From a virus (lineage: Duplodnaviria > Caudoviricetes): a DNA stretch of 39,641 nt. Below the pieces are notes generated by a model that made no database searches, was not told the DNA's origin, and was given only the letters and a program-made list of their open reading frames with translations. The translations under genes and the position numbers were made by a program. This document shows, piece by piece, positions 2,499 through 21,136 of the stretch (its first letter is position 1; every line of letters starts with the position of its first letter). The stretch covers positions 1-39,641 of IMG/VR virus record IMGVR_UViG_3300033407_000385; one strand, 5' to 3'.

Positions 2499-2750
2499 AT
2501 GACGACATTCGACCGTGAACTGACCAGGCACCGCCGGCAATTCATCCAGCGCCTGCTGTCGCTGTTCGGGCAGGGCGGGCTGATCGACGAGATGATCCTG
2601 TATCTGGTCAATCACTTCGGGTACAACGCATCCCTCGATCGGGTACGTACAGACCTGACCTGGCTCGCAGACCAGTGCCTGGTGTCCACGTCCGAGGTCG
2701 TCTTCAAGACCGTCGTCACGAAGACCGTCATCTTTGCCAAGGCGATGTGA
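2499..2750 (+). CDS. Paralog of the Mu gp26-like winged-HTH protein at 12761-13060
   Basis: FGYNASLDRVRTDLTWLADQCLV versus FGHNVSRDRVRTDLAWLAEQGLV; ATG at 2499 chosen by alignment. Confidence 0.7.
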   Translation: MTTFDRELTRHRRQFIQRLLSLFGQGGLIDEMILYLVNHFGYNASLDRVRTDLTWLADQCLVSTSEVVFKTVVTKTVIFAKAM

Positions 2751-2752
2751 CG

Positions 2753-3196
2753 ATGGCGCGGCGGCCCGATCCGACAACACCCGATCTGTTCGACGCCGAG
2801 CCGCCGGCGCCGCGTGCCGGCTCCGGGAACCACGCCATCGAACTGCGACATCTTCTGAGCGACATCCTCAAGCGCTGCCCGCATGACCGCTACGAGATAG
2901 CGGCGCGCATGTCGCGTCTGCTCGGCACAGACGTCACCAAGCACCAGCTCGACGCGTGGACGGCGGAGAGCCGAACGCCCTGGCGCTTTCCGCTCGAGTA
3001 CCTGTGGGCGTTCGAGCAAGCGGCCGAGACGCACGAGCTGACGCGGTTCGTCGTGGAGCTGGGAGGCGGCTGGTACGTCGAGAACGATGAGCTGCTGTGC
3101 CTCGAGCTCGGGCGCGCGCAGCGCACGCTCCACGCCGCGCAGGACCGGCGCGACGATCTCGCGGAACGGCTGCGCCGACGGGAGAACACAGCGTGA
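2753..3196 (+). CDS. Conserved Mu-like early protein, probable DNA-binding (CII-like)
   Basis: RYEIAARMSRLLGTDVTKHQLDAWTAESR motif; stop overlaps the transposase start. Confidence 0.7.
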   Translation: MARRPDPTTPDLFDAEPPAPRAGSGNHAIELRHLLSDILKRCPHDRYEIAARMSRLLGTDVTKHQLDAWTAESRTPWRFPLEYLWAFEQAAETHELTRFVVELGGGWYVENDELLCLELGRAQRTLHAAQDRRDDLAERLRRRENTA

Positions 3197-5367
3197 GAGA
3201 GTGGTTCTCAGCATCGGAGCTGGCGGGGCTGCCGGGAATGCCGGCCACGCATAGTGCTGTGATCCGATTGTCGAAACGGAATCGTTGGGACTTCCAACAT
3301 AAATCCGGCCGCGGCGGCGGCCGCGAATATCACATTGCCTCGCTGTCGGCCGAGACGCGCGCCCACCTCGCCACCACTCATTTGAGTGGGGCGGATGTCG
3401 ATGCCGGCGCGGCCGAGGCACGCAAGCTCGATATTGTGGCCCGCGTCGGCCAGGCGGCCGAACGGCGCACGCGCACATACGGCCTGGCGCGCGCCGCGGC
3501 ACTGCGCCCAGCCGACCGCGCACGTCTCGCCGCGAAGCGCCGCATCCTGATCCTGGCAGACGATTACCGCCGCGCAGCGCAATTGCCCCTGCGCGATGCA
3601 GACCTCGCTTTTGCGCGCGCGTACACGACCGGCGCCCTCGAGGTGGACGAGGCCACACGCGCCGCGGTCCGGCGCGTGTCGGCATCGACGTTGCGTGCCT
3701 GGCGCCGGAGGCTACAGACCGAAGGGGACGCCGCGCTCGCCGGCCGCTACGGCAACCGGCGCGGCACGTCGCGGATCGACCGTACGCCAGAGATCCACGA
3801 TTTCATCCTGGCGATGGTGCACGACAACCCGCACGTGATGTGCAAGGGCATCTACCGCGGGTTAAAGGCCCGTTTTGCCGCCGATTTGCGGCCGTCGAAA
3901 CGCGCGCTGCAGCGCTGGCTCAAGCGCTGGAAACGGGAGCACGCGGAACTCTACCAGCACATCTTGAACCCCGACCGGTGGCGGTCCCGCTACCAGGCCG
4001 CCGGCGGCAACGCTGCCGAGGCGATTACCGCGCTCAATCAATTGTGGGAGATGGACTCGACGCCGGGCGACGTGCTGCTGGCAGACGGCCATCGCCACGC
4101 ACTCATCGGCGTCATCGACGTGCAGAGCAGACGCCTCAAGTTCCACGTGTCGCGAACGAGTCGATCGACGGCTATCTCCGCGCTGTTGCGCCGGGCAATC
4201 CTCGAATGGGGCGTGCCCGACACCGTCAGCACCGACGAAGGTTCGGATTACACCAGCCTGCACGTCCGGCGCGCGTTCTCCGGTCTGGATACCCATCACC
4301 ATATCTGCCGGGCGTTCACCCCCGAGGACAAGCCGTTCATCGAGCGCGCCTTCGGCACGTTCTGCCGGGACCTGGTGGAGCTGCTGCACGGCTACATCGG
4401 GCACGACGTCGCCGGGCGCAAGAACATCGAGGCGCGCCGCTCGTTCGCCGATCGACTGATGAAACGCGGCGAGGAGCCGGCGGAGCTGCGGTTGACGCCG
4501 GAAGAATTCCAGGCGTTTTGCGACGCGTGGTGCGATCAGGTCTACGGAATGGAGCCGCACAGCGGTCTCGACGGCAAGGCGCCGCTCGAGGTCGCGGCGA
4601 GCTGGCCGCACCCCATCCGGCGCATCGACGACGCGCGCGCGCTCGACATTCTGCTTTCCGAGGCGCCAGGCGACGGGCACCGCACGGTCACCAAGAAGGG
4701 CATACGCATCGACGGCGCCCTGTTCGACTCGCCGGCGCTCGGCGAGATGGCCGGCAAGCGCGTGCGTGTGCTGCTGGACGAGACTGACCACGGATCCATC
4801 TACGTGTTCGACGGCGACACGGGCGCATTCGTGTGCCAGGCGGTGTGCCCGGAGCGCACCGGGATCTCCCGCAAGGAAGTCGCCACCCATCGCAAGCAAA
4901 AACAGAAGGCACTCATCGCTGAGCAGCGCAAGGAGCTGAAGGCCATCGCGCGCCGCGTCGACACGACAAACATCGTCTCGGAGATCCTGGCCGAGCGCGC
5001 CGCGGCCGCCGGCAAGCTCGCTTACTTCCCGCAGCGCTCGATCGATCACACCACGCCCGAGCTCGAGGCCGCCGGCGAGGCCGCGCGCCGCGCCGCGCCC
5101 AGTGCCCGCCCGCTCGACGACGACGAGCGCGCCGCGCAAGCGCGCATCGCCGAACAGCTCCGATCAGGCCGCGGACCGCACGAGCCGGAGGAAACCTTGG
5201 ACCAGCGCGCGCGCCGGTGGGACGCGATCCGCGTCCGCATCGAGCGCGGCGAGCGCGTGACGGACGACGAATACGCCTTCTACGAGGGCTGGCGGGACAC
5301 GCCGGAATGCCGGGCCTACGAGCGCATGCGAGTGGACCTCGGCTGGCGCGCCAGCGAAGCGAACTGA
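3193..5367 (+). CDS. muA: MuA-type DDE transposase
   Basis: N-terminal Mu DNA-binding domain (EWFSASELAGLPGMP...GRGGGREYH); catalytic WEMDST, STDEGSDY, KPFIERAF; C-terminal Mu-transposase domain; GTG start in GTGA overlap. Confidence 0.96.
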   Translation: MREWFSASELAGLPGMPATHSAVIRLSKRNRWDFQHKSGRGGGREYHIASLSAETRAHLATTHLSGADVDAGAAEARKLDIVARVGQAAERRTRTYGLARAAALRPADRARLAAKRRILILADDYRRAAQLPLRDADLAFARAYTTGALEVDEATRAAVRRVSASTLRAWRRRLQTEGDAALAGRYGNRRGTSRIDRTPEIHDFILAMVHDNPHVMCKGIYRGLKARFAADLRPSKRALQRWLKRWKREHAELYQHILNPDRWRSRYQAAGGNAAEAITALNQLWEMDSTPGDVLLADGHRHALIGVIDVQSRRLKFHVSRTSRSTAISALLRRAILEWGVPDTVSTDEGSDYTSLHVRRAFSGLDTHHHICRAFTPEDKPFIERAFGTFCRDLVELLHGYIGHDVAGRKNIEARRSFADRLMKRGEEPAELRLTPEEFQAFCDAWCDQVYGMEPHSGLDGKAPLEVAASWPHPIRRIDDARALDILLSEAPGDGHRTVTKKGIRIDGALFDSPALGEMAGKRVRVLLDETDHGSIYVFDGDTGAFVCQAVCPERTGISRKEVATHRKQKQKALIAEQRKELKAIARRVDTTNIVSEILAERAAAAGKLAYFPQRSIDHTTPELEAAGEAARRAAPSARPLDDDERAAQARIAEQLRSGRGPHEPEETLDQRARRWDAIRVRIERGERVTDDEYAFYEGWRDTPECRAYERMRVDLGWRASEAN

Positions 5368-5411: not shown

Positions 5412-6134
5412 ATGGAAACTAACGGTACGACCGCGCCGATCCAGAACGTGGCGATTTGCGCCTCGGCGATCGGCAAAGCGATGGACCGGCCCGCGCACCT
5501 GCCGGGCATGGTGTGCTTCTACGGGCCGTCCGGCTGGGGCAAGAGCTCGGCGGCGGCCTATGCGGCCAACGCCAACCGCGCTTACTACGTGGAGGCGAAG
5601 TCCTCCTGGACGCGCAAGGCGCTGCTGATCGCGATCCTGCGCGAGATCGGCATCGTGCCCGCTCGCACCATCTACGAGCTGACCGACCAGGTGTCCGAGC
5701 AGCTCGTGCTCTCGCAGCGCCCGCTGATCGTCGACGAGATGGACCACCTCGTGGACCGCAACGCGGTTGAAGTGGTGCGCGACATCTATGAGGGATCGAA
5801 CGCGGCCATCCTGCTCATCGGCGAGGAAATGCTGCCGTCGAAACTGAAGAAGTGGGAGCGGGTCCACGGCCGCATGCTGCACTGGGCGCCGGCGCAGCCG
5901 GCCAGCATCGACGACGCGACGCACCTGCGCGCGCTCTACTCGCGCGGCGTCGACATCGCCGACGACCTGCTCGGCTGGATCCACGAGCTGAGCAAGGGCT
6001 CGGTGCGGCGCATCTGCGTCAACCTGGAGCGCGTTACCAGCGAGGCGAAGGGCAAGGGCCAGATGGCCGTCGATCTCGACTGGTGGGGCGGGCGCGAGCT
6101 GTTCACCGGCGAGGCGCCGGTGCGGCGGGTGTGA
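5412..6134 (+). CDS. muB: MuB-like AAA+ transposition ATPase
   Basis: Walker A GPSGWGKS, Walker B LIVDEMD; follows the transposase; GAGGAG RBS. Confidence 0.93.
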   Translation: METNGTTAPIQNVAICASAIGKAMDRPAHLPGMVCFYGPSGWGKSSAAAYAANANRAYYVEAKSSWTRKALLIAILREIGIVPARTIYELTDQVSEQLVLSQRPLIVDEMDHLVDRNAVEVVRDIYEGSNAAILLIGEEMLPSKLKKWERVHGRMLHWAPAQPASIDDATHLRALYSRGVDIADDLLGWIHELSKGSVRRICVNLERVTSEAKGKGQMAVDLDWWGGRELFTGEAPVRRV

Positions 6135-6141
6135 CGCCGAT

Positions 6142-6756
6142 ATGAGCGACCACCAAATCACGCTCGAGAATCTGCGCGATCGCATCTGGCAGGCGATTCG
6201 CAACCGGCTCGACTTCACGGTGAGCGACATCCACGCCGACATCATCCGCGGCTCGGTGCCGCGCGGCGTCGTCCGCTCGCATATCTACCAGTACGTCCGG
6301 CTGCTCGAGCGCGCCGGATACCTGGAGCGCTGCGGCCACGTGCCCGGCAAGCGCAGCACGTGCCTGCAGGTGCTTTTCCGCCTGCGCCAGGATGTCGGTG
6401 TCGAGCGTCCGATGTTGACCACTGCCGGCACGCTGTCCAGCGCAGGGGTCAGGCGCGAGCGCCTGTGGCGGACGATCAAGATTCTGAAGGAATTCAGTCT
6501 CGACGAGCTGGCCGCGCACGCCTCGACCCACGACCTCGAGGTCTCCAGGGCGGCGGCCACGAGGTTCGTCCGCGCACTGACCAAGGCCAGCTACCTGGTC
6601 GTCACACGGCGCGCGTCGGCGCGCTCTGTCCGCCGCTGGCGCGCCGTGCCGTCGAAAGTCCGCGGCCCGCATACGCCCCGGTACCGGCGGCGCGACCAGG
6701 TCCTGTTCGATCCGAACACCGGCGAGGCGATCCGGCTTGGCGACGGCGATGAGTGA
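6142..6756 (+). CDS. Hypothetical early protein (two wHTH-like repeats)
   Basis: Repeated IW..I...F...E/D pattern; usual position after B. Confidence 0.7.
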   Translation: MSDHQITLENLRDRIWQAIRNRLDFTVSDIHADIIRGSVPRGVVRSHIYQYVRLLERAGYLERCGHVPGKRSTCLQVLFRLRQDVGVERPMLTTAGTLSSAGVRRERLWRTIKILKEFSLDELAAHASTHDLEVSRAAATRFVRALTKASYLVVTRRASARSVRRWRAVPSKVRGPHTPRYRRRDQVLFDPNTGEAIRLGDGDE

Positions 6757-7069
6757 CTGGATAGAGACCCTGGCCAAGGCGTGCGCCGCGACCTCTCAGA
6801 AGCGCGTCGCGGACCGCCTCGGCATCAGCGCCACCGTGGTCAACCAGGTGCTCCACGCCAAGTACCCGGGGAATTTGAGGCGGATCCAAGACCTCGTCGA
6901 ATTCGGGCTAACGGGCACATCCGTGCGATGTCCCGTCCTCGGCGAGATAGGAAAGGAGGACTGCCTCGCCCACCAGCGCCAGCCGTTCGCGGCGACGAAC
7001 GCGCAGCGCGTCCGACTGTTCCGCGCGTGCCGGAACGGATGCCCGCACAGCCGGATAGGAGGTGACTGA
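6749..7069 (+). CDS. HTH protein with Cys-rich C terminus
   Basis: SQKRVADRLGISATVVNQVL HTH; CPVLGEI...C...ACRNGCPHS. Confidence 0.75.
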   Translation: MSDWIETLAKACAATSQKRVADRLGISATVVNQVLHAKYPGNLRRIQDLVEFGLTGTSVRCPVLGEIGKEDCLAHQRQPFAATNAQRVRLFRACRNGCPHSRIGGD

Positions 7070-7071
7070 CC

Positions 7072-7452
7072 ATGACTCTAAGCGACGAGACCATCGACAC
7101 CCTGGCAGAAATCTACATTGCCAATCGACTGTCCGCGTTCGGCGTGACGTTCGGCGAGTTCGTCGCGTTGCCCGGGCACTACAAAAACACGCTGCTGTTC
7201 GGCGCGCGCGAGGCGATCGAGGAAGGCTTTCGGCCGCTGCTGCCCCGCCAGGCGAAAGCGCAGCTCGAGGCCGACTTCCAGGAGACCCTGGCGCAGCTCC
7301 GCGACGACCTTGAGAACGAGCTCGATCACCTGCATCACGTCATCGGACCGCGGCGCCAGTCCCAGGCGGCACGCATGTGCGACGGCCGCGCCATTCAGCC
7401 CATGCACCCCCGCGCCATCGCCGGCGAGCGCTGCACGCGAGTCCGGCGATGA
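7072..7452 (+). CDS. Hypothetical protein
   Basis: AGGAGGT RBS; operon packing. Confidence 0.65.
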   Translation: MTLSDETIDTLAEIYIANRLSAFGVTFGEFVALPGHYKNTLLFGAREAIEEGFRPLLPRQAKAQLEADFQETLAQLRDDLENELDHLHHVIGPRRQSQAARMCDGRAIQPMHPRAIAGERCTRVRR

Positions 7453-7553
7453 GGTTGCCGGCGGAGCGCTGGGTCGACGCCGCGGTGATCGCGATTGCGA
7501 TCGCGGGCGTCGTTACCGGATTTCTCGTGGCGCTCGGCGCCATCGGAGGATGA
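7449..7553 (+). CDS. 34-aa single-pass membrane peptide (not in the ORF track)
   Basis: ATGA overlap with the upstream stop; MRLPAERWVDAAVIAIAIAGVVTGFLVALGAIGG; fills the operon gap exactly. Confidence 0.6.
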   Translation: MRLPAERWVDAAVIAIAIAGVVTGFLVALGAIGG

Positions 7554-7554
7554 G

Positions 7555-7740
7555 ATGAGGAAACCGCAGCACAGGTTCATCGAGCGTTTAGCCGGGCATG
7601 TGCGGGACTATATCGCCGACCACCCGCTGTGCGATTGCGGCGATGTCGCGAGACGCGTCACTGAGCCCGCGCTTGATGGCTATACGCTCTTTTACAAGCT
7701 GCCGGGGCTTGGCGAGGAATACGCGCGCGCCCGGTCGTGA
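7555..7740 (+). CDS. Hypothetical protein
   Basis: GGAGG RBS before ATG 7555; GTGA overlap with the next gene. Confidence 0.55.
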   Translation: MRKPQHRFIERLAGHVRDYIADHPLCDCGDVARRVTEPALDGYTLFYKLPGLGEEYARARS

Positions 7741-8048
7741 GCGGCGCCGATCGCATCGTCATCGACACGCGCGCGGAATCGGGATCCGTATTCGCCATGC
7801 CGGCCGACCGAACCGATTACGCGGCCTGGCTCAAGGAGCGTTACGAGGCGCTGAAGGGCGAGCAAGTCACGATCATGAAAACCACCTACCGGCAGAGCCT
7901 GGGCGGCGTCAACCAGGCGATCAATCACGCTATCGCGCACGCTCAAGCGGGAGGGCGGGTCGTCGCCATCGGCCCCTACGCGTTCGAGGCCGCGGAGGTG
8001 GTGGCGGAGCTGTCCCGCGACACGGTGCGCCCGGAGGTCGCGGCATGA
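7737..8048 (+). CDS. Hypothetical protein
   Basis: Coupled overlaps at both ends. Confidence 0.6.
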   Translation: MSGADRIVIDTRAESGSVFAMPADRTDYAAWLKERYEALKGEQVTIMKTTYRQSLGGVNQAINHAIAHAQAGGRVVAIGPYAFEAAEVVAELSRDTVRPEVAA

Positions 8049-8359
8049 CCACGGAGCAGTTTCTCCAGGTGCTCTCGTGGCACGTCGGCCAGGCGTACGG
8101 CATCACCGCCCGCGAGCTGGCCGAACGCTGCGGTATTGCCGAGCGCGAGGTGCGCCGCCACGTGAGCGAGCTGCGCGACGAGGGGATCGCCGTCTGCGCC
8201 CACCCGCGCACCGGGTACTTCATTGCGCAGACGCCCGCCGAGCTCGACATGGCGTGCAAGTACCTGCGCCGCCGCGCGCTGCACAGCCTCACCCTCGAAT
8301 CGCGGATGCGCAAGATTTCGATGGCCGAGCTGCTCGGCCAGATAAAGGTGCCGACATGA
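8045..8359 (+). CDS. Winged-HTH (HTH_11-like) protein
   Basis: ITARELAERCGIAEREVRRHVSELRDEGIAV...GYFIA; GGAGG RBS. Confidence 0.8.
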   Translation: MTTEQFLQVLSWHVGQAYGITARELAERCGIAEREVRRHVSELRDEGIAVCAHPRTGYFIAQTPAELDMACKYLRRRALHSLTLESRMRKISMAELLGQIKVPT

Positions 8360-8574
8360 AGCGCTGGACGTCGAAGCTCGCCGTCGCGCGCTCAAGACGC
8401 CAGTTAAATGCGGCCATCGAGCGACTGAGGAAAGTCAGCATCGAGTGGGATGACGTGGATCAGATCTTCGTGTTTCGTGCGGAGGATCTGATCGACGAGC
8501 TGGAGCAATTCGCGGACGAGATACGCGACGTAGTCCAGGAGCGCCTGGAAGCCGGCGAGGACATAGGGCTTTAA
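8356..8574 (+). CDS. Hypothetical protein (acidic helical C terminus)
   Basis: ATGA overlap; AAGGTG RBS. Confidence 0.6.
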   Translation: MKRWTSKLAVARSRRQLNAAIERLRKVSIEWDDVDQIFVFRAEDLIDELEQFADEIRDVVQERLEAGEDIGL

Positions 8575-10484: not shown

Positions 10485-10531
10485 AAGCGGAACCCCTTCC
10501 GCTACGTGTCGCCCGGCGCCAAACCTACAAT
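10485..10531 (+). promoter_or_regulatory. Activator-dependent late promoter (Plys-like)
   Basis: AAGCGGAA-CCCC-TTCCGCTACGTG dyad plus TACAAT -10 (10526-10531); no -35; same motif recurs at 19951. Confidence 0.8.
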
Positions 10532-10539
10532 CTGCCCGC

Positions 10540-11064
10540 ATGGGACGCCGGCGCGAAATTTCCGACATCGACACCATCGTCATCCACTGCGCGGCGACGT
10601 ATAACGGCATGCCCGTGACCGCGGCCGAGATCGACGGATGGCACCAGCAGCGCGGATTCCGGCGCGACATGGCCATCGATCCCGATCATGCGCCAAAGCT
10701 CCGGCACATCGGCTACCACCTGGTGATCCTGCTGGACGGGTCCGTGCAGCGCGGCCGGCCGTTGATCGAGTCCGGCGCGCACGTGCGCGGCCACAACGCG
10801 CGCAGCATCGGCATCTGCATGATCGGCACCGACGCATTCGCGCCGGCACAGTGGCGCGCGCTCGCCGTGGAGGTTGGGGATCTGCGCCGGCGCATTCCTG
10901 AGTTGCGCGTCGTCGGCCACCGCGATCTGTCGCCGGACATCGACGGCGACGGCACCGTCGAGCCGCACGAATGGCTCAAGACCTGTCCCGGGTTCGAGGT
11001 GGCCGCCTGGCTCGCCTTCGGCATGCAGCCGCTGCAGGGGCACGTGCTGGGGGAGACCGGATGA
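10540..11064 (+). CDS. Endolysin, N-acetylmuramoyl-L-alanine amidase (T7 lysozyme-like)
   Basis: IVIHCAAT, IGYHLVI, GAHVRGHN, SIGICMIG, GHRDLSPD, KTCPGF motifs. Confidence 0.95.
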   Translation: MGRRREISDIDTIVIHCAATYNGMPVTAAEIDGWHQQRGFRRDMAIDPDHAPKLRHIGYHLVILLDGSVQRGRPLIESGAHVRGHNARSIGICMIGTDAFAPAQWRALAVEVGDLRRRIPELRVVGHRDLSPDIDGDGTVEPHEWLKTCPGFEVAAWLAFGMQPLQGHVLGETG

Positions 11065-16655: not shown

Positions 16656-17885
16656 GTGGCCGTCGCGGAATACGGCGGGCTCTCGTTCAAGGAGCAGATC
16701 GAATTCTTCCGCCAGAAGGACCTGGTCCCGACCGAGCGCTGGACGGATCTGTGGAAGGCGCAGCACGACCGCGGCTTCATGGTGGCAGGCGCCGCAAAGC
16801 GCGAGCTGCTGGAGAATTTCCAGGCAGCGATCGGCAAGGCGATTTCCGAGGGCACCACGCTCGCCGAGTTCCGCAAAGACTTCGACGGTATCGTCGCGCG
16901 GCACGGCTGGTCGTACAAGGGCGGGCGCGGCTGGCGCACGCGCGTCATCTACGAGACGAACCTGCGCACCTCGTACCAGGCAGGGCGTCTCGCCCAGATG
17001 CGCCGCGTCGCGGACCGCCGCCCTTACTGGCGCTACGTGCACTCGGACTCGGTCACGCACCCGCGCCCGCTGCACGTCTCCTGGGACGGTACGGTGCTGC
17101 GCCACGACGATCCCTGGTGGGAGACGCATTCCCCGCCGAACGGCTGGGGCTGCAAGTGCCGGGTGTTCTCGCTCGGCGAGCGCGACCTCGAGCGGCTGGG
17201 AAAGGACGGCCCGGACACCGCGCCCGACGACGGCACGCGGGAGTGGACCGACCGCGCCACCGGCGAGGTCCACCGCGTGCCGAACGGGATCGACCCCGGG
17301 TGGGACTACCCGCCGGGGCGCGGCTGGGTCGAGGGGCTCACCCCGCGCGAGCTGGAGGCCGACGACCTGCTGCCCGCAGACGCTGGCGGAGCGGCCCGCC
17401 CCACCGACGCGCTCCCGCGAGCCCGCCCGGCGCCGGCTAGCCGGCTGTTGCCGGCAGGGTTGTCCGAACAGGAGTATGCCGACCGTTTCTTGGCGGAGTT
17501 CGGCGTGCGCGCGCCGGCGCGCCACACCATTTTCGAGGACGTCACCGGCGAGGTGCTGCTGATCAGCGACGCGCTGTTCTTGCGGCGCGACGGCACCCTC
17601 AAATCCGATAAGCGCGGACGCGGGCGTTACCTGCTCTTGTCGGCCGACACGATTCGATCGCCCGACGAGATCTGGCAGGCGTGGGAAAACGTTGGCGGGA
17701 AGACCACGCTCCGCAGGCGTTACGTCGCGCGATGGGAGATCGAGGGCGAGGAGGCCCCGGCGCTCAGCGTGTTCGGCTGGGGACGCGACGGCTGGACTGG
17801 CGTGACGGCATTCAGCCCGGAGTCGATCAGGAATATCGAGTCACGGGCCAGGCGGGGGAAACGTGTCTATCGGCGGCCGGAGTAA
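16656..17885 (+). CDS. MuF (gp30) minor head protein with a C-terminal PBECR2-like nuclease-fold extension
   Basis: FKEQIEFFRQK, YETNLRTSYQAGR, PPNGWGCKCRV (MuF); C-terminal DTIRSPDEIW...RRRYVARW...WTGVTAF...RRGKRVYRR. Confidence 0.88.
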   Translation: MAVAEYGGLSFKEQIEFFRQKDLVPTERWTDLWKAQHDRGFMVAGAAKRELLENFQAAIGKAISEGTTLAEFRKDFDGIVARHGWSYKGGRGWRTRVIYETNLRTSYQAGRLAQMRRVADRRPYWRYVHSDSVTHPRPLHVSWDGTVLRHDDPWWETHSPPNGWGCKCRVFSLGERDLERLGKDGPDTAPDDGTREWTDRATGEVHRVPNGIDPGWDYPPGRGWVEGLTPRELEADDLLPADAGGAARPTDALPRARPAPASRLLPAGLSEQEYADRFLAEFGVRAPARHTIFEDVTGEVLLISDALFLRRDGTLKSDKRGRGRYLLLSADTIRSPDEIWQAWENVGGKTTLRRRYVARWEIEGEEAPALSVFGWGRDGWTGVTAFSPESIRNIESRARRGKRVYRRPE

Positions 17886-17962
17886 GCCCGCGGCGCCGCC
17901 CCACCGCGAGCGTCCCGCGCGTAGGAGTAGAGGCCGGGGCGGCGGCCGCTCGCGCGATGGAC
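17886..17962 (+). ncRNA. Predicted two-hairpin kissing-loop RNA downstream of muF
   Basis: HP1 CGCGG/CCGCG with loop containing CCGCCC; HP2 GTCC/GGAC, CGCGC/GCGCG, GAG/CTC, GGCCG/CGGCC with loop GGGCGG. Confidence 0.5.
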
Positions 17963-17978
17963 TGTAGATAAGGTACGG

Positions 17979-18431
17979 ATGGCAGGCACGAGATTCAAGG
18001 TCGAGATCGACGACGCCGCGGTGCGCCGCACGCTCGAGCGGATCGTCGCCGCCGGCGAGGACCTGACGCCGGCGCTCGAGGACATCGGCGAGGCGCTACT
18101 GGCGAGCCACTTCGATCGCTGGCGGCGCGAGGAGGCGCCGGACGGTACGCCCTGGGCGCCGCTCTCGCCCAAGTACGCCGCGCGAAAGGCGCGCAAGCGC
18201 CCAAACGCCGGGATCCTCGTGTTCGACGACCTGCTGCGCTCGCTCGCCTGGCAGGTGCAGGGCGACGAGCTCGAGCTTGGCACCGGCCGGGTCTACGGCG
18301 CCACCCACCAGTTCGGGCGCGGCGGCATCCCCGCCCGCCCCTTCCTCGGGCTCTCCGGCGACGACGAGGCGGAGGTGCTGGAGATCCTGCGGCGGCACCT
18401 GGCGGACGCGATCCCCGGCGGCGGCACCTGA
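17979..18431 (+). CDS. Virion morphogenesis protein (Mu gpG/gp31)
   Basis: APDGTPWAPLSP, YGATHQFG, IPARPFLGLS. Confidence 0.92.
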   Translation: MAGTRFKVEIDDAAVRRTLERIVAAGEDLTPALEDIGEALLASHFDRWRREEAPDGTPWAPLSPKYAARKARKRPNAGILVFDDLLRSLAWQVQGDELELGTGRVYGATHQFGRGGIPARPFLGLSGDDEAEVLEILRRHLADAIPGGGT

Positions 18432-18593
18432 CCGCCTGTGCGGCCCGTGAGGCTTACGTGGCCGTCCGCACGGATGGAGGGCCGCGTGCGATGGAGTTAA
18501 ACGTTTTGGGGGAAATTTAAACGCCTTCCCCGGCGGCTGGCGGCAGAGGCGGCAGGCGACAAAGGCGACCGCACCTAAAATTAGCAAAAAGCC

Positions 18594-18622
18594 TTGACGG
18601 TTTCCCCTGACGCGCGTAGAAT
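18594..18622 (+). promoter_or_regulatory. Strong sigma70 promoter of the inserted accessory operon
   Basis: TTGACG (18594-18599), 17 bp, TAGAAT (18617-18622); A-rich upstream sequence; AGGAGG RBS at 18673. Confidence 0.8.
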
Positions 18623-18682
18623 TGAACTCACGCTGGCAGACACGCCAGCACCCATCAATCTCTTGATTAGACAGGAGGCAGC

Positions 18683-18991
18683 ATGAAAATCTACCACAAA
18701 AGCAATCTCGGCAGCGCCAATCAGTGGGGCACCTCTCACCCCGATGATGACATCGAATTCGACACGGCCTACGCGCCAACGGAATTCCGTAATAAATACG
18801 GCGTGGAGTGGGATGTGTTTGGCCGCTTTATCCCGCTCGACGGCATGGTGGTCGGCGAGCGACTAGCTGAAATCGATGGCGGATTAGTCCTCGTCGGGCA
18901 AAACGACGATGGCGAGATTGAAGTGTGGACTGGCACCGCGATCCAGGACCTCGAGGGATACTATTACGAGGCTGAGATTTCAGCTTCCTGA
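18683..18991 (+). CDS. Small acidic hypothetical protein (anti-defence candidate)
   Basis: Own promoter and AGGAGG RBS; about 20 D/E versus 6 K/R in 102 aa; visibly lower GC than flanks. Confidence 0.8.
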   Translation: MKIYHKSNLGSANQWGTSHPDDDIEFDTAYAPTEFRNKYGVEWDVFGRFIPLDGMVVGERLAEIDGGLVLVGQNDDGEIEVWTGTAIQDLEGYYYEAEISAS

Positions 18992-19028
18992 GTATTGATT
19001 TTTTGCGCGGCGGCGGCCTCATTGCAGC

Positions 19029-19427
19029 ATGGCACATAGATTTATTGCGGATGATAGTGCCACACATTTCCGCCGCCGCGCCCCTGATCTAATGAAAGAA
19101 TTCCGAGGAAAACCCGACACGCGCCTGGCGTTCCAGTGCCGCCCTGACGGCGGCACTGACACGTACAAGCTCATCTTGCGCCACCCGTTCCAGTCCGCGG
19201 AGCTGCGCGAGCTGCTCGGTACGGCGCTCGCGCAGTGGAAGCGCGATGGCCGGCGCGAGCCGAGACAAATAACGCTCGGCCGATACACGCCGCACGGGTT
19301 TTCGCCGTCGCGGCGCTGGCTGTCGGCGCTAGAGCTGGAGGCTGTCGCCGACCGCATCGCCTACGATTTGATGCGGCTCTACGGCGAGGGCGGGCCATAC
19401 CATCAGGTGCCATCCGATGACACATAA
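19029..19427 (+). CDS. Hypothetical protein (start could be 19092)
   Basis: Fills the operon between 18991 and 19417; first ATG lies inside a long hairpin. Confidence 0.55.
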   Translation: MAHRFIADDSATHFRRRAPDLMKEFRGKPDTRLAFQCRPDGGTDTYKLILRHPFQSAELRELLGTALAQWKRDGRREPRQITLGRYTPHGFSPSRRWLSALELEAVADRIAYDLMRLYGEGGPYHQVPSDDT

Positions 19428-19599
19428 CCAGCAGAAGAAACTGCGGCGAATCCAACGAGAGATCGCCGAGTTCGCGGCGCGCGCAGGCGCGCCGGCGGAT
19501 ACGCCGCGGCAACGCGCGACCGTCACCAGGGCCAACCGCTGCCTGATGCGGCGTTGCCGGGATCTCGATGCACTCATGCGAGTGGTGGCGGCCGAATGA
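19417..19599 (+). CDS. Hypothetical small basic protein
   Basis: Overlaps the upstream stop; AGGTG upstream. Confidence 0.5.
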   Translation: MTHNQQKKLRRIQREIAEFAARAGAPADTPRQRATVTRANRCLMRRCRDLDALMRVVAAE

Positions 19600-19629
19600 A
19601 ATACGGGCCGTATCGCGAGGTCCCTGACA

Positions 19630-19929
19630 ATGACGCCGACTGAATTCGCCGCGGCCGCCGACCAAACACGCCTGCGCGAGAAGCGCCGCGAGGCGGCGCG
19701 ACTCGTCCTGGTCGGCGGGCACTCGATGGCCGCGGCCGGGCGCGCGGTCGCGATCTCGCGCCAGGCGGTGCACGAGGCCGTGGCGCGCATCGAGCGCGTG
19801 CACCAGGGCCTCGCCGGCGCGCCGCGCGACTGGTGCGTGGTCACGGTGTGCGTGCCGGCCGGCGACGTGGACGCGGTGCGGAACATCGAGCGCGCGGCAC
19901 TGATCGACGCCGGGTTACGTCAGACTTAA
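19630..19929 (+). CDS. KorA/TrfB-like HTH transcriptional repressor
   Basis: AARLVLVGG.SMAAAGRAVAISRQAVHEAVARI...PRDWCVVTVCVP parallels IncP KorA (ARGVLVDG...GLTRGAVSQAVHRV...PEGYARVTAVLP); GAGGT RBS. Confidence 0.75.
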   Translation: MTPTEFAAAADQTRLREKRREAARLVLVGGHSMAAAGRAVAISRQAVHEAVARIERVHQGLAGAPRDWCVVTVCVPAGDVDAVRNIERAALIDAGLRQT

Positions 19930-19950
19930 GCAACTGCGCCGTCCTGCCCA

Positions 19951-19997
19951 AAGCGGAAGCCCTTCCGCTACGTGATGGCCTGATCGCTTCGTACAAT
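19951..19997 (+). promoter_or_regulatory. Activator-dependent late promoter (PI-like)
   Basis: AAGCGGAA-GCCC-TTCCGCTACGTG plus TACAAT (19992-19997); same 55-nt spacing to the ATG as at 10485. Confidence 0.8.
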
Positions 19998-20005
19998 CCG
20001 CCCCG

Positions 20006-21136
20006 ATGAACGGGGCATCCCTGCAAATCTTCCGCGCCGGCCGTCACCGCGCCATGAGCGGCGTCGAGATCGAGTTCTCCGCGGACGACCTGGCCGCGAG
20101 CGCAGCCGCCTACGATCCGGCGCTGCACGAGGCACCGCTCGTCGTCGGCCATCCGACGCTCGACGCGCCGGCGTACGGCTGGGTGGGCGCGCTCTCCGCG
20201 CGCGACGGTTCGCTCGAGGCCTCCCCGCGGCAGGTCGACCAGGCGTTCGCCGAGCTGGTGCGTGGCGGGAAATTCAAGAAGGTGTCGCCCGCATTCTATC
20301 CACCGGACCACGCCGACAATCCAAAGCCGGGGATCTACTACCTGCGCCACGTCGGTTTTCTCGGCGCGCAGCCGCCGGCGGTCAAGGGACTGCGCCCCAT
20401 CGAGTTCGCCGACGATGTCGACGGTGTCGTCGTGTTCGCCGACGCCATCGATCGGGACGTCGCGACGCTGTTCCGCCGGCTGCGAGAGTGGATTATCGGC
20501 AAGTTCGGCGCGGAGGACGCGGACGCCGCGGTGCCGGGGTGGGCCGTCGATTACGTTCAGGAGGTCGCGGCGGCCGACGAGCCGGCGCAAGCATTCGGCG
20601 AGGAGGATGACGACATGACCAAGGCAGAACTGGAGCGTCTCGAACGCAAGCTCGCGGAGGAAAAGCAAGCCCTCGATGCGCGAGCGGCGAAAGTGGAGCA
20701 GCAGGAGGCGGCATTCGCAGAGCGCGAAAGCCAACTCGCAGCCGAGTCGCAAAAACGCCGGAAGATCGAGGTCGCTGCCTTCGTCGAGACGCTCGCCAAG
20801 GACGGCCGGATCCTGCCGCGCCACCAGGCCGGGCTCACGGAGTGCCTGCTTGCGTGGCCGGCGGACGCCGTCATCGAGTTCGGCGAGGGCGACGACGCGC
20901 ACAAGGGGGCGCCCGATGCGTGGCTGCGCGACTTCCTCGGCGAGCTGCCGGGTCGAATCGAGTACGCCGAGCTCGCGCCGGGCTATCTACAGGCCCCGGA
21001 CGCCGGCGCAAACGACGAGGAGATCGCGCACAGGGCGCGGAAGTATCGGGAGCAGCGCATCGAGCAGGGAGCGCGGCTGAGTTTTGCAGAGGCCGTCGAC
21101 GCGGTGCGCCGCGGCGACGACCGGGACGCCGCCTGA
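20006..21136 (+). CDS. Prohead protease/scaffold (Mu gpI/gp32-like)
   Basis: HEAPLVVGHP, PAYGWV, YYLRHVGFLGAQPPAVKGL; coiled-coil scaffold C terminus. Confidence 0.92.
   Translation: MNGASLQIFRAGRHRAMSGVEIEFSADDLAASAAAYDPALHEAPLVVGHPTLDAPAYGWVGALSARDGSLEASPRQVDQAFAELVRGGKFKKVSPAFYPPDHADNPKPGIYYLRHVGFLGAQPPAVKGLRPIEFADDVDGVVVFADAIDRDVATLFRRLREWIIGKFGAEDADAAVPGWAVDYVQEVAAADEPAQAFGEEDDDMTKAELERLERKLAEEKQALDARAAKVEQQEAAFAERESQLAAESQKRRKIEVAAFVETLAKDGRILPRHQAGLTECLLAWPADAVIEFGEGDDAHKGAPDAWLRDFLGELPGRIEYAELAPGYLQAPDAGANDEEIAHRARKYREQRIEQGARLSFAEAVDAVRRGDDRDAA

Follow-up and report, generated by a model that had tools for sequence, protein, structure and literature searches.

A Mu-like phage cassette with a KorA/ArdK-type repressor and uncharacterised cargo is probably an Aca-style counter-defence operon

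We describe a promoter-led cassette of four genes, inserted among the head genes of a transposable phage, which is probably an Aca-style, self-repressing counter-defence operon. The stretch of DNA analysed (39,641 nt, here called the window) is by its gene-family content a complete-looking Mu-like transposable phage, with genes for a repressor, a Ner-like protein, transposase, MuB, Gam, amidase, terminase, portal, gpF, gpG, protease, capsid and tail. The cassette sits between gpG (Neck1; 17979-18431; PF05069, phrog_26, TIGR01635) and the head maturation protease/scaffold gene (20006-21136; B3/BcepMu type, phrog_976, E 1e-109). It comprises a promoter at 18594 followed by ORF1 (18683-18991), ORF2 (19092-19427), ORF3 (19417-19599) and a gene of the KORA family, korA (19630-19929), all of which, like the two flanking genes and, unless noted, the elements described below that lie between those two, are on the + strand. 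We note that the C-terminal domain of gpF (MuF; 16656-17885) is PBECR2, a predicted RNase (PF18810, E 1.6e-26), and that fusions of MuF to an effector of this type are known.

An initial annotation, made from the nucleotide sequence, had described a cassette that interrupts the head genes under its own near-consensus sigma70 promoter, ends in an HTH gene and is followed directly by a late promoter, and each of these points is borne out. The promoter, TTGACG-17-TAGAAT (18594-18622), matches the consensus at 10/12 positions (shuffles mean 0.4) and is the sole site of at least 10/12 on either strand of the whole window. Downstream of korA lies a late promoter element, an inverted repeat plus TACAAT (19954-19997), and its sequence, CGGAAnCCCTTCCGCTACGTG...TACAAT, has exactly two copies in the window, this one and a twin at 10488-10531, each ending 8 nt from its ATG (that of the protease and that of the lysis amidase, respectively). 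Mu lysis and head genes have late promoters, and the paired elements fit that expectation. Neither element is separated from its ATG by a Shine-Dalgarno sequence in the 8 nt that follow it (10488-10542 and 19954-20008), so that translation of both the lysis and the protease transcript may be leaderless. The three small unknown ORFs of the annotation are also present and match no known family; the start of ORF2 had been placed at 19029, and is corrected here to 19092 because the homologues begin there and the stretch upstream is a hairpin.

The cassette is not an assembly chimera, since 18019-20500 is spanned with zero differences by a contig (6,458 nt) from the run that is the probable source, and exact short pieces occur in three runs from other studies, some of them bridging the left flank, the promoter and ORF1. 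By their record, the seven listed runs in which window DNA occurs, four of which were compared, come from metagenomes of soil or sediment, and no RNA run is among them.

Comparison with relatives identifies the cassette as an insertion at an often-empty site. All seven cultured relatives examined have gpG adjoining the protease gene, and the window protease is less than 60% identical to every one of 77 cultured matches. Among 93 protease loci, 54 have gpG upstream (one contig counted twice), while in the other 39 gpG is elsewhere, undetected or cut off; the gap at the junction is 317 nt or less in 44 of the 54 and 410-2275 nt in the remaining 10. The inserts scanned in five of those 10 loci hold RES/HEPN, peptidase S24, DUF2158 or nothing, and a KorA relative in none. 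For instance, L064 has an antisense RES/HEPN-RES protein in the slot (2512-3810) and L074 is similar by eye (1031-2470), a 270-aa unknown protein occupies the slot in L024 (3085-3897) and in L058 (1806-3901), the L058 copy being interrupted by an insertion sequence, and L006 has an antisense UmuD-like peptidase S24 gene (4163-4645). The intergenic DNA between gpG and the promoter (18432-18560, no strand assigned) is AT-rich with a GTTAA...TTTAAA core, which is loosely common to the empty-site relatives (mean column identity only 44%). A strong gyrase site (SGS) is reported to map near G and I in Mu (PMC10052514), and by its position near the genome centre this core is possibly a region of the same kind.

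Because 10 of 54 relatives carry unrelated inserts, the gpG-protease position is a general accessory (moron) slot and is by itself no sign of anti-CRISPR function. The cassette might then be a lysogenic-conversion moron, with a promoter active in the prophage, cargo that protects the lysogen by superinfection exclusion or anti-phage defence, and a KorA protein that only sets the level of expression. The RES/HEPN-domain and other morons found in this slot (as in L064) speak for such a reading, and sigma70 promoters are usual for morons. However, PADLOC matched none of 12 proteins, cargo included, the links of the ORF2 family are with ArdC and not with defence genes (see below), and a terminal autorepressor with modular small acidic cargo suits counter-defence better, so we consider a moron of this kind improbable.

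The counter-defence reading draws much of its support from ORF2 (111 aa), which belongs to a phage family that is small and unnamed. Among 1.84 billion representatives it matched 10 sequences including itself, one of which (a 974-aa repeat protein) was dropped as spurious; a profile search gave 13 matches, and the 17 sequences in the alignment are all unnamed or "hypothetical". No match was found in cultured phages or GTDB contigs, nor any viral locus for the ORF2 subfamily A7, and we found no earlier description of the family in the open literature searched. The structure model is confident and of alpha/beta type (pLDDT 88, pTM 0.79), and the Foldseek comparison that the initial annotation had proposed gave no match to it in PDB or BFVD with an E value of 0.001 or less. 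VIA matches (best Z 4.2, mostly GNAT-like fragments) were taken to reflect a common arrangement and allowed no fold call. Since the invariant residues (P57, G63, G69, P72, R88, I89, D92) form no recognised catalytic motif, ORF2 would most simply be a non-enzymatic binder. ORF3 (60 aa), which overlaps ORF2, is very basic (pI 11.5), and ORF2 is likewise basic and not acidic. In line with the statement that none of the ORFs is recognisable as a known Acr, ORF1-3 have no match to a known Acr or anti-defence protein in Pfam, PHROGs, NCBIfam or PDB sequences, or in fold searches with the ORF2 model, libraries which are incomplete for Acrs.

The DNA context of ORF2 homologues could be read in three other phages: L094, a Mu-like phage that was assembled twice (L096/L097), and the fragment L103. 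L094 has a lambda-type terminase and portal and is unrelated to the window phage; its antisense cassette (6060-8550), between terL and a gpW-like gene, starts with ArdC and DUF2958 and closes with a winged HTH, and between these come an unknown ORF and then the ORF2 homologue. The ArdC protein matches PF08401, PF18818 and the anti-restriction family phrog_7245; ArdC is reported to counter type I restriction (PMC7213743) and is described as rare in phage-type polyvalent proteins (PMC5512222). This cassette also has a two-hairpin leader and, between its genes, a pair of long hairpins that are related to each other (z -6.9 and -5.1). Its apparent promoter, which was seen by eye only and failed the 10/12 scan, has in its spacer an inverted repeat of 7 bp that is perfect. 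The leader and hairpins have the architecture of those in the window but do not share their sequence. In L096/L097 the cassette is inverted beside the protease gene with its own 10/12 promoter, a nearly identical leader and an identical intergenic stem; ORF2 and ORF3 are 65% and 80% identical to those of the window, and the first gene and the HTH differ, the terminal winged HTH being 46% identical to that of L094. Gene order in L097 (1537-6322) is a rearranged Mu-like one, in which two repressor/Ner-like pairs and a transposase adjoin the cassette and the cassette abuts the protease gene. In L103, where only the tail of the ORF2 homologue is present, the next gene encodes an XRE HTH of 73 aa, which reached only E 0.84 as Aca3 and is a generic XRE protein.

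Thus in four of four phage contexts read, the window included, the ORF2 family stands at most one gene 5' of a terminal HTH, and these HTHs are of three families. A recognised anti-defence gene is present in one of the three contexts with a readable 5' end, and an Acr in none. The proposal to examine the neighbourhoods of homologues therefore yielded the terminal HTH in every case and ArdC in one, but no Acr in any neighbourhood read. We note that the counter-defence role gains position-independent support in this way, because the family precedes a terminal HTH throughout and is once found with ArdC. CRISPR is not specifically indicated, since neither the cassette nor any neighbourhood read has an Acr homologue and the sole recognised neighbour is an anti-restriction protein. 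Of the initial proposal of an acr-aca-like architecture carrying a new anti-defence set, the architecture and the counter-defence role gain support, from the ORF2-HTH association, ArdC and the KORA precedent, but nothing points to CRISPR specifically. As to the target, a CRISPR system is a possibility that we would doubt if taken singly, restriction-modification is rather unlikely, and some other defence is slightly less likely again.

The first cargo slot is a further argument for counter-defence. ORF1 encodes an orphan protein of 102 aa (pI 4.1, net charge -14) that is the most acidic of 39 window ORFs scored, with a net charge per length of -0.137 (next -0.092), and its GC content is low (GC 0.55, GC3 0.66), while that of korA matches the genome. 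Among 5.8 billion proteins, compared at near lengths, it found only itself; there was no usable Atlas match and no PDB sequence match below E 0.7, a single weak phage match was found by tblastn (E 0.06), and the single-sequence model was unusable (pLDDT 42). Homology between the window and L096 ends at the ORF1 start codon, is back at the intergenic stem and stops at the ORF3 stop, and in place of ORF1 L096 has an unrelated acidic protein of 216 aa. That product (497-1147) is more acidic still, with 25% Asp/Glu, a net charge of -42 and Cys-x-x-Cys motifs, and the search for a family, phage or PDB match to the L096 gene gave none. The two slot-1 proteins have a pI of about 4.1 and no mutual relationship. 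The L096 protein is a strong candidate for a nucleic-acid mimic, and ORF1 would most simply be an acidic nucleic-acid mimic or nuclease binder; counter-defence is supported because the slot swaps between very acidic proteins.

The untranslated elements are retained across this exchange. The 5' leader (18632-18678; z -3.8) forms two hairpins (18632-18649 and 18659-18678) and is kept in L096; in both phages the Shine-Dalgarno sequence of the first gene is predicted to be taken up in hairpin 2, with unpaired probabilities of 0.04 and 0.07. Between ORF1 and ORF2 lies a 12-bp GC stem with a variable inner part (19005-19081; z -2.6), of which the stem is identical in L096 and the inner part has diverged. 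Rfam had no match at E up to 10 across 17800-20100, which covers both elements, and a scan of IMG/VR with the leader motif gave two matches, neither with the promoter and Shine-Dalgarno context, that were judged to be chance. Hairpins of this kind adjoining the start site are reported to be bound by Aca1 and Aca2 (PMC13551039). Because the same leader occurs with two different repressors, that of the window would be either independent of the repressor or read by a shared product.

On a further reading, ORF2 and ORF3 would be regulatory co-factors that bind the leader or intergenic hairpins, as RNA or DNA, leaving slot 1 as the sole effector. The leader and stem are kept together with ORF2 and ORF3 while ORF1 and the HTH swap, ORF2 is close to the terminal HTH in every context, and both proteins are basic. 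Yet the leader and hairpins of L094 match in architecture and not in sequence, and the ORF2 model matched no RNA-binding fold in the fold searches. We regard this role as very unlikely; it is compatible with counter-defence and differs only in which genes are the effectors.

The terminal gene encodes a KorA/ArdK/TrfB-family repressor (P0004) of 99 aa. It scores 41.9 bits against PF16509 (KORA; curated cut-off 26.7) and aligns to TrfB/KorA over residues 2-87, so that both the HTH and the C-terminal dimerisation domain are covered, and its best PDB match is 7BBQ, ArdK of R388 (E 1.8e-4, residues 13-95). The annotation had assigned it to a family other than that of Aca1, which is right, but KORA is not new among Acas, as Aca4 belongs to the same family (PF16509; PMC9410906, PMC9765179). 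It is about 40% identical to the Aca4 reference (24 of about 62 positions, a by-eye count), the level given for "solo" homologues, whereas acr-linked Aca4s are described as about 67 aa long and 72% identical to the reference (PMC9410906). The reported Aca4 operator, tacaccc-N4-gggtgcA (PMC9410906 supplement), is absent from the promoter and leader, its sole window match with up to 3 mismatches being at 4607, inside the transposase gene. Because of its length, identity and operator the repressor is, as judged from sequence, not an Aca4, though it would be Aca-like in its working. No relative of the protein was found in IMG/VR, cultured phages, GTDB contigs, the 5.8-billion set (exact-word limited) or the 93 protease loci. 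Two TrfB-like genes of Thiothrix plasmids (about 40%) head small hypothetical genes, with no named anti-defence gene among these.

As to how korA arrived, a 15-codon frame (19596-19643) resembles the C-terminal tail of an ORF2 homologue. In the 30 nt 5' of korA this frame matches the L096 ORF2 tail at 6/8 residues, the best of 79,230 six-frame 8-mers in the window, and at the DNA level the same stretch gives 21/33 compared with 20 elsewhere, a value reached in 9 of 2000 shuffles, which is modest support. Because of this resemblance it is likely a scar left by korA arriving from a donor ORF2-korA cassette.

There are two candidates for the operator. A CTAA-N2-TTAG palindrome (18575-18589, no strand assigned), 4 nt 5' of the -35, overlaps a stretch that agrees at 8/10 positions with the core of the KorA operator of RK2 (PMC2680271). 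When 2 mismatches are allowed the window has no other match, with 1.17 expected by chance; the match lies in an A-rich stretch, was noticed post hoc and is a weak candidate. Alternatively, a TGACG direct repeat (18595 and 18608) overlaps the -35 and might be an ArdK-like operator, also a weak candidate, being one of four such repeats in the genome.

Characterised KORA members argue for counter-defence, since the targets of repression by Aca4 and ArdK are acr and ardC operons. ArdK of R388 is reported to repress ardC and four other early establishment promoters via direct repeats at the -35 (PMC9723621, PMC3937220). It also controls ssb and others besides ardC (PMC3937220), and this would also suit an early host-takeover or fitness module that acts outside immunity, for instance on transcription, replication or proteolysis, with the co-occurrence of ArdC reflecting shared early timing only. 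That the basic ORF2 and ORF3 could bind nucleic acid, and that defence-related homology was not found for the cargo, fit a module of this kind too. The patchy presence of the cassette, the swapping of slot 1 and the replacement of the repressor point instead to fast-turnover conflict cargo, and we judge a takeover module improbable, a shade more so than the moron considered above.

If the cassette is a counter-defence operon, its likely working is as follows. On entry of repressor-free phage DNA the host-type sigma70 promoter would fire at once, and a burst of three small proteins, ORF1-3, would blunt a host defence early in infection, with hairpin 2 damping the translation of ORF1 by pairing with its Shine-Dalgarno sequence. 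As the KorA/ArdK-family protein accumulates it would silence the promoter, by analogy to Aca4 and ArdK, through the palindrome at 18575-18589 or the direct repeat at the -35. Silencing would presumably also limit read-through into the late protease promoter, for which Aca1 provides a precedent (PMC9410906).

This leads us to a more specific proposal, which we put forward tentatively and think somewhat more apt to fail than to hold. The ORF2 family would be a new counter-defence family, with a fold unmatched in PDB and BFVD, traded among phages that are not related to each other, with at least three repressors able to stand in for one another; ORF1 would be a swappable acidic inhibitor; the full-length KorA/ArdK protein would be a new Aca borrowed from a plasmid establishment regulon; and the winged HTH of L094 and L096 would be a second new Aca-type marker. 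If true, this would provide three clonable candidate inhibitors, one of them from a family without a fold match, and two new markers, full-length KorA/ArdK and the winged HTH, with which uncultured phages could be mined for anti-defence genes through guilt by association. It would also tie Aca-type control in phages to the plasmid ArdK control of anti-restriction genes. As the design is well known, the value lies in new parts rather than a new principle.

The closest counterpart is the acr-aca1 module of the JBD30/D3112 group of Mu-like phages, for which position, promoter and terminal HTH are described (PMC4704812). The window cassette has in common with it the gpG-protease/scaffold site, a -35/-10 promoter, small genes and the terminal HTH, as well as a hairpin directly past the predicted start site, as in the reported Aca1 RNA motif (PMC13551039). 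It differs in having a KorA-type repressor in place of Aca1 and no Acr homologue, and in belonging to a phage with a B3/BcepMu-type protease whose seven cultured relatives examined have the site empty. With acr-aca4 as described (PMC9410906) it shares PF16509 and the terminal position in a promoter-led operon of small genes, but the repressor is of 99 aa with a dimerisation domain as compared to 67 aa, its identity as counted by eye is about 40%, and there is no Aca4 inverted repeat. The same source reports that acr genes pair with different Acas (PMC9410906), which the occurrence of ORF2 with three repressor families mirrors.

With the ArdK regulon of IncW/IncN plasmids, in which a negative feedback loop is reported to give a burst of expression of ardC, ssb and other establishment genes on entry (PMC9723621, PMC3937220), the cassette shares a full-length KorA-family repressor and a strong promoter. 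Here the repressor is phage-borne and in the same operon as the cargo, ArdC co-occurs with the ORF2 family elsewhere but not in the window itself, and the TGACG hexamers are spaced by 7 nt, slightly more than the reported 3-6 bp (PMC9723621). The overall design is familiar: the module is acr-aca-like, its repressor is of the ArdK type and its cargo is uncharacterised.
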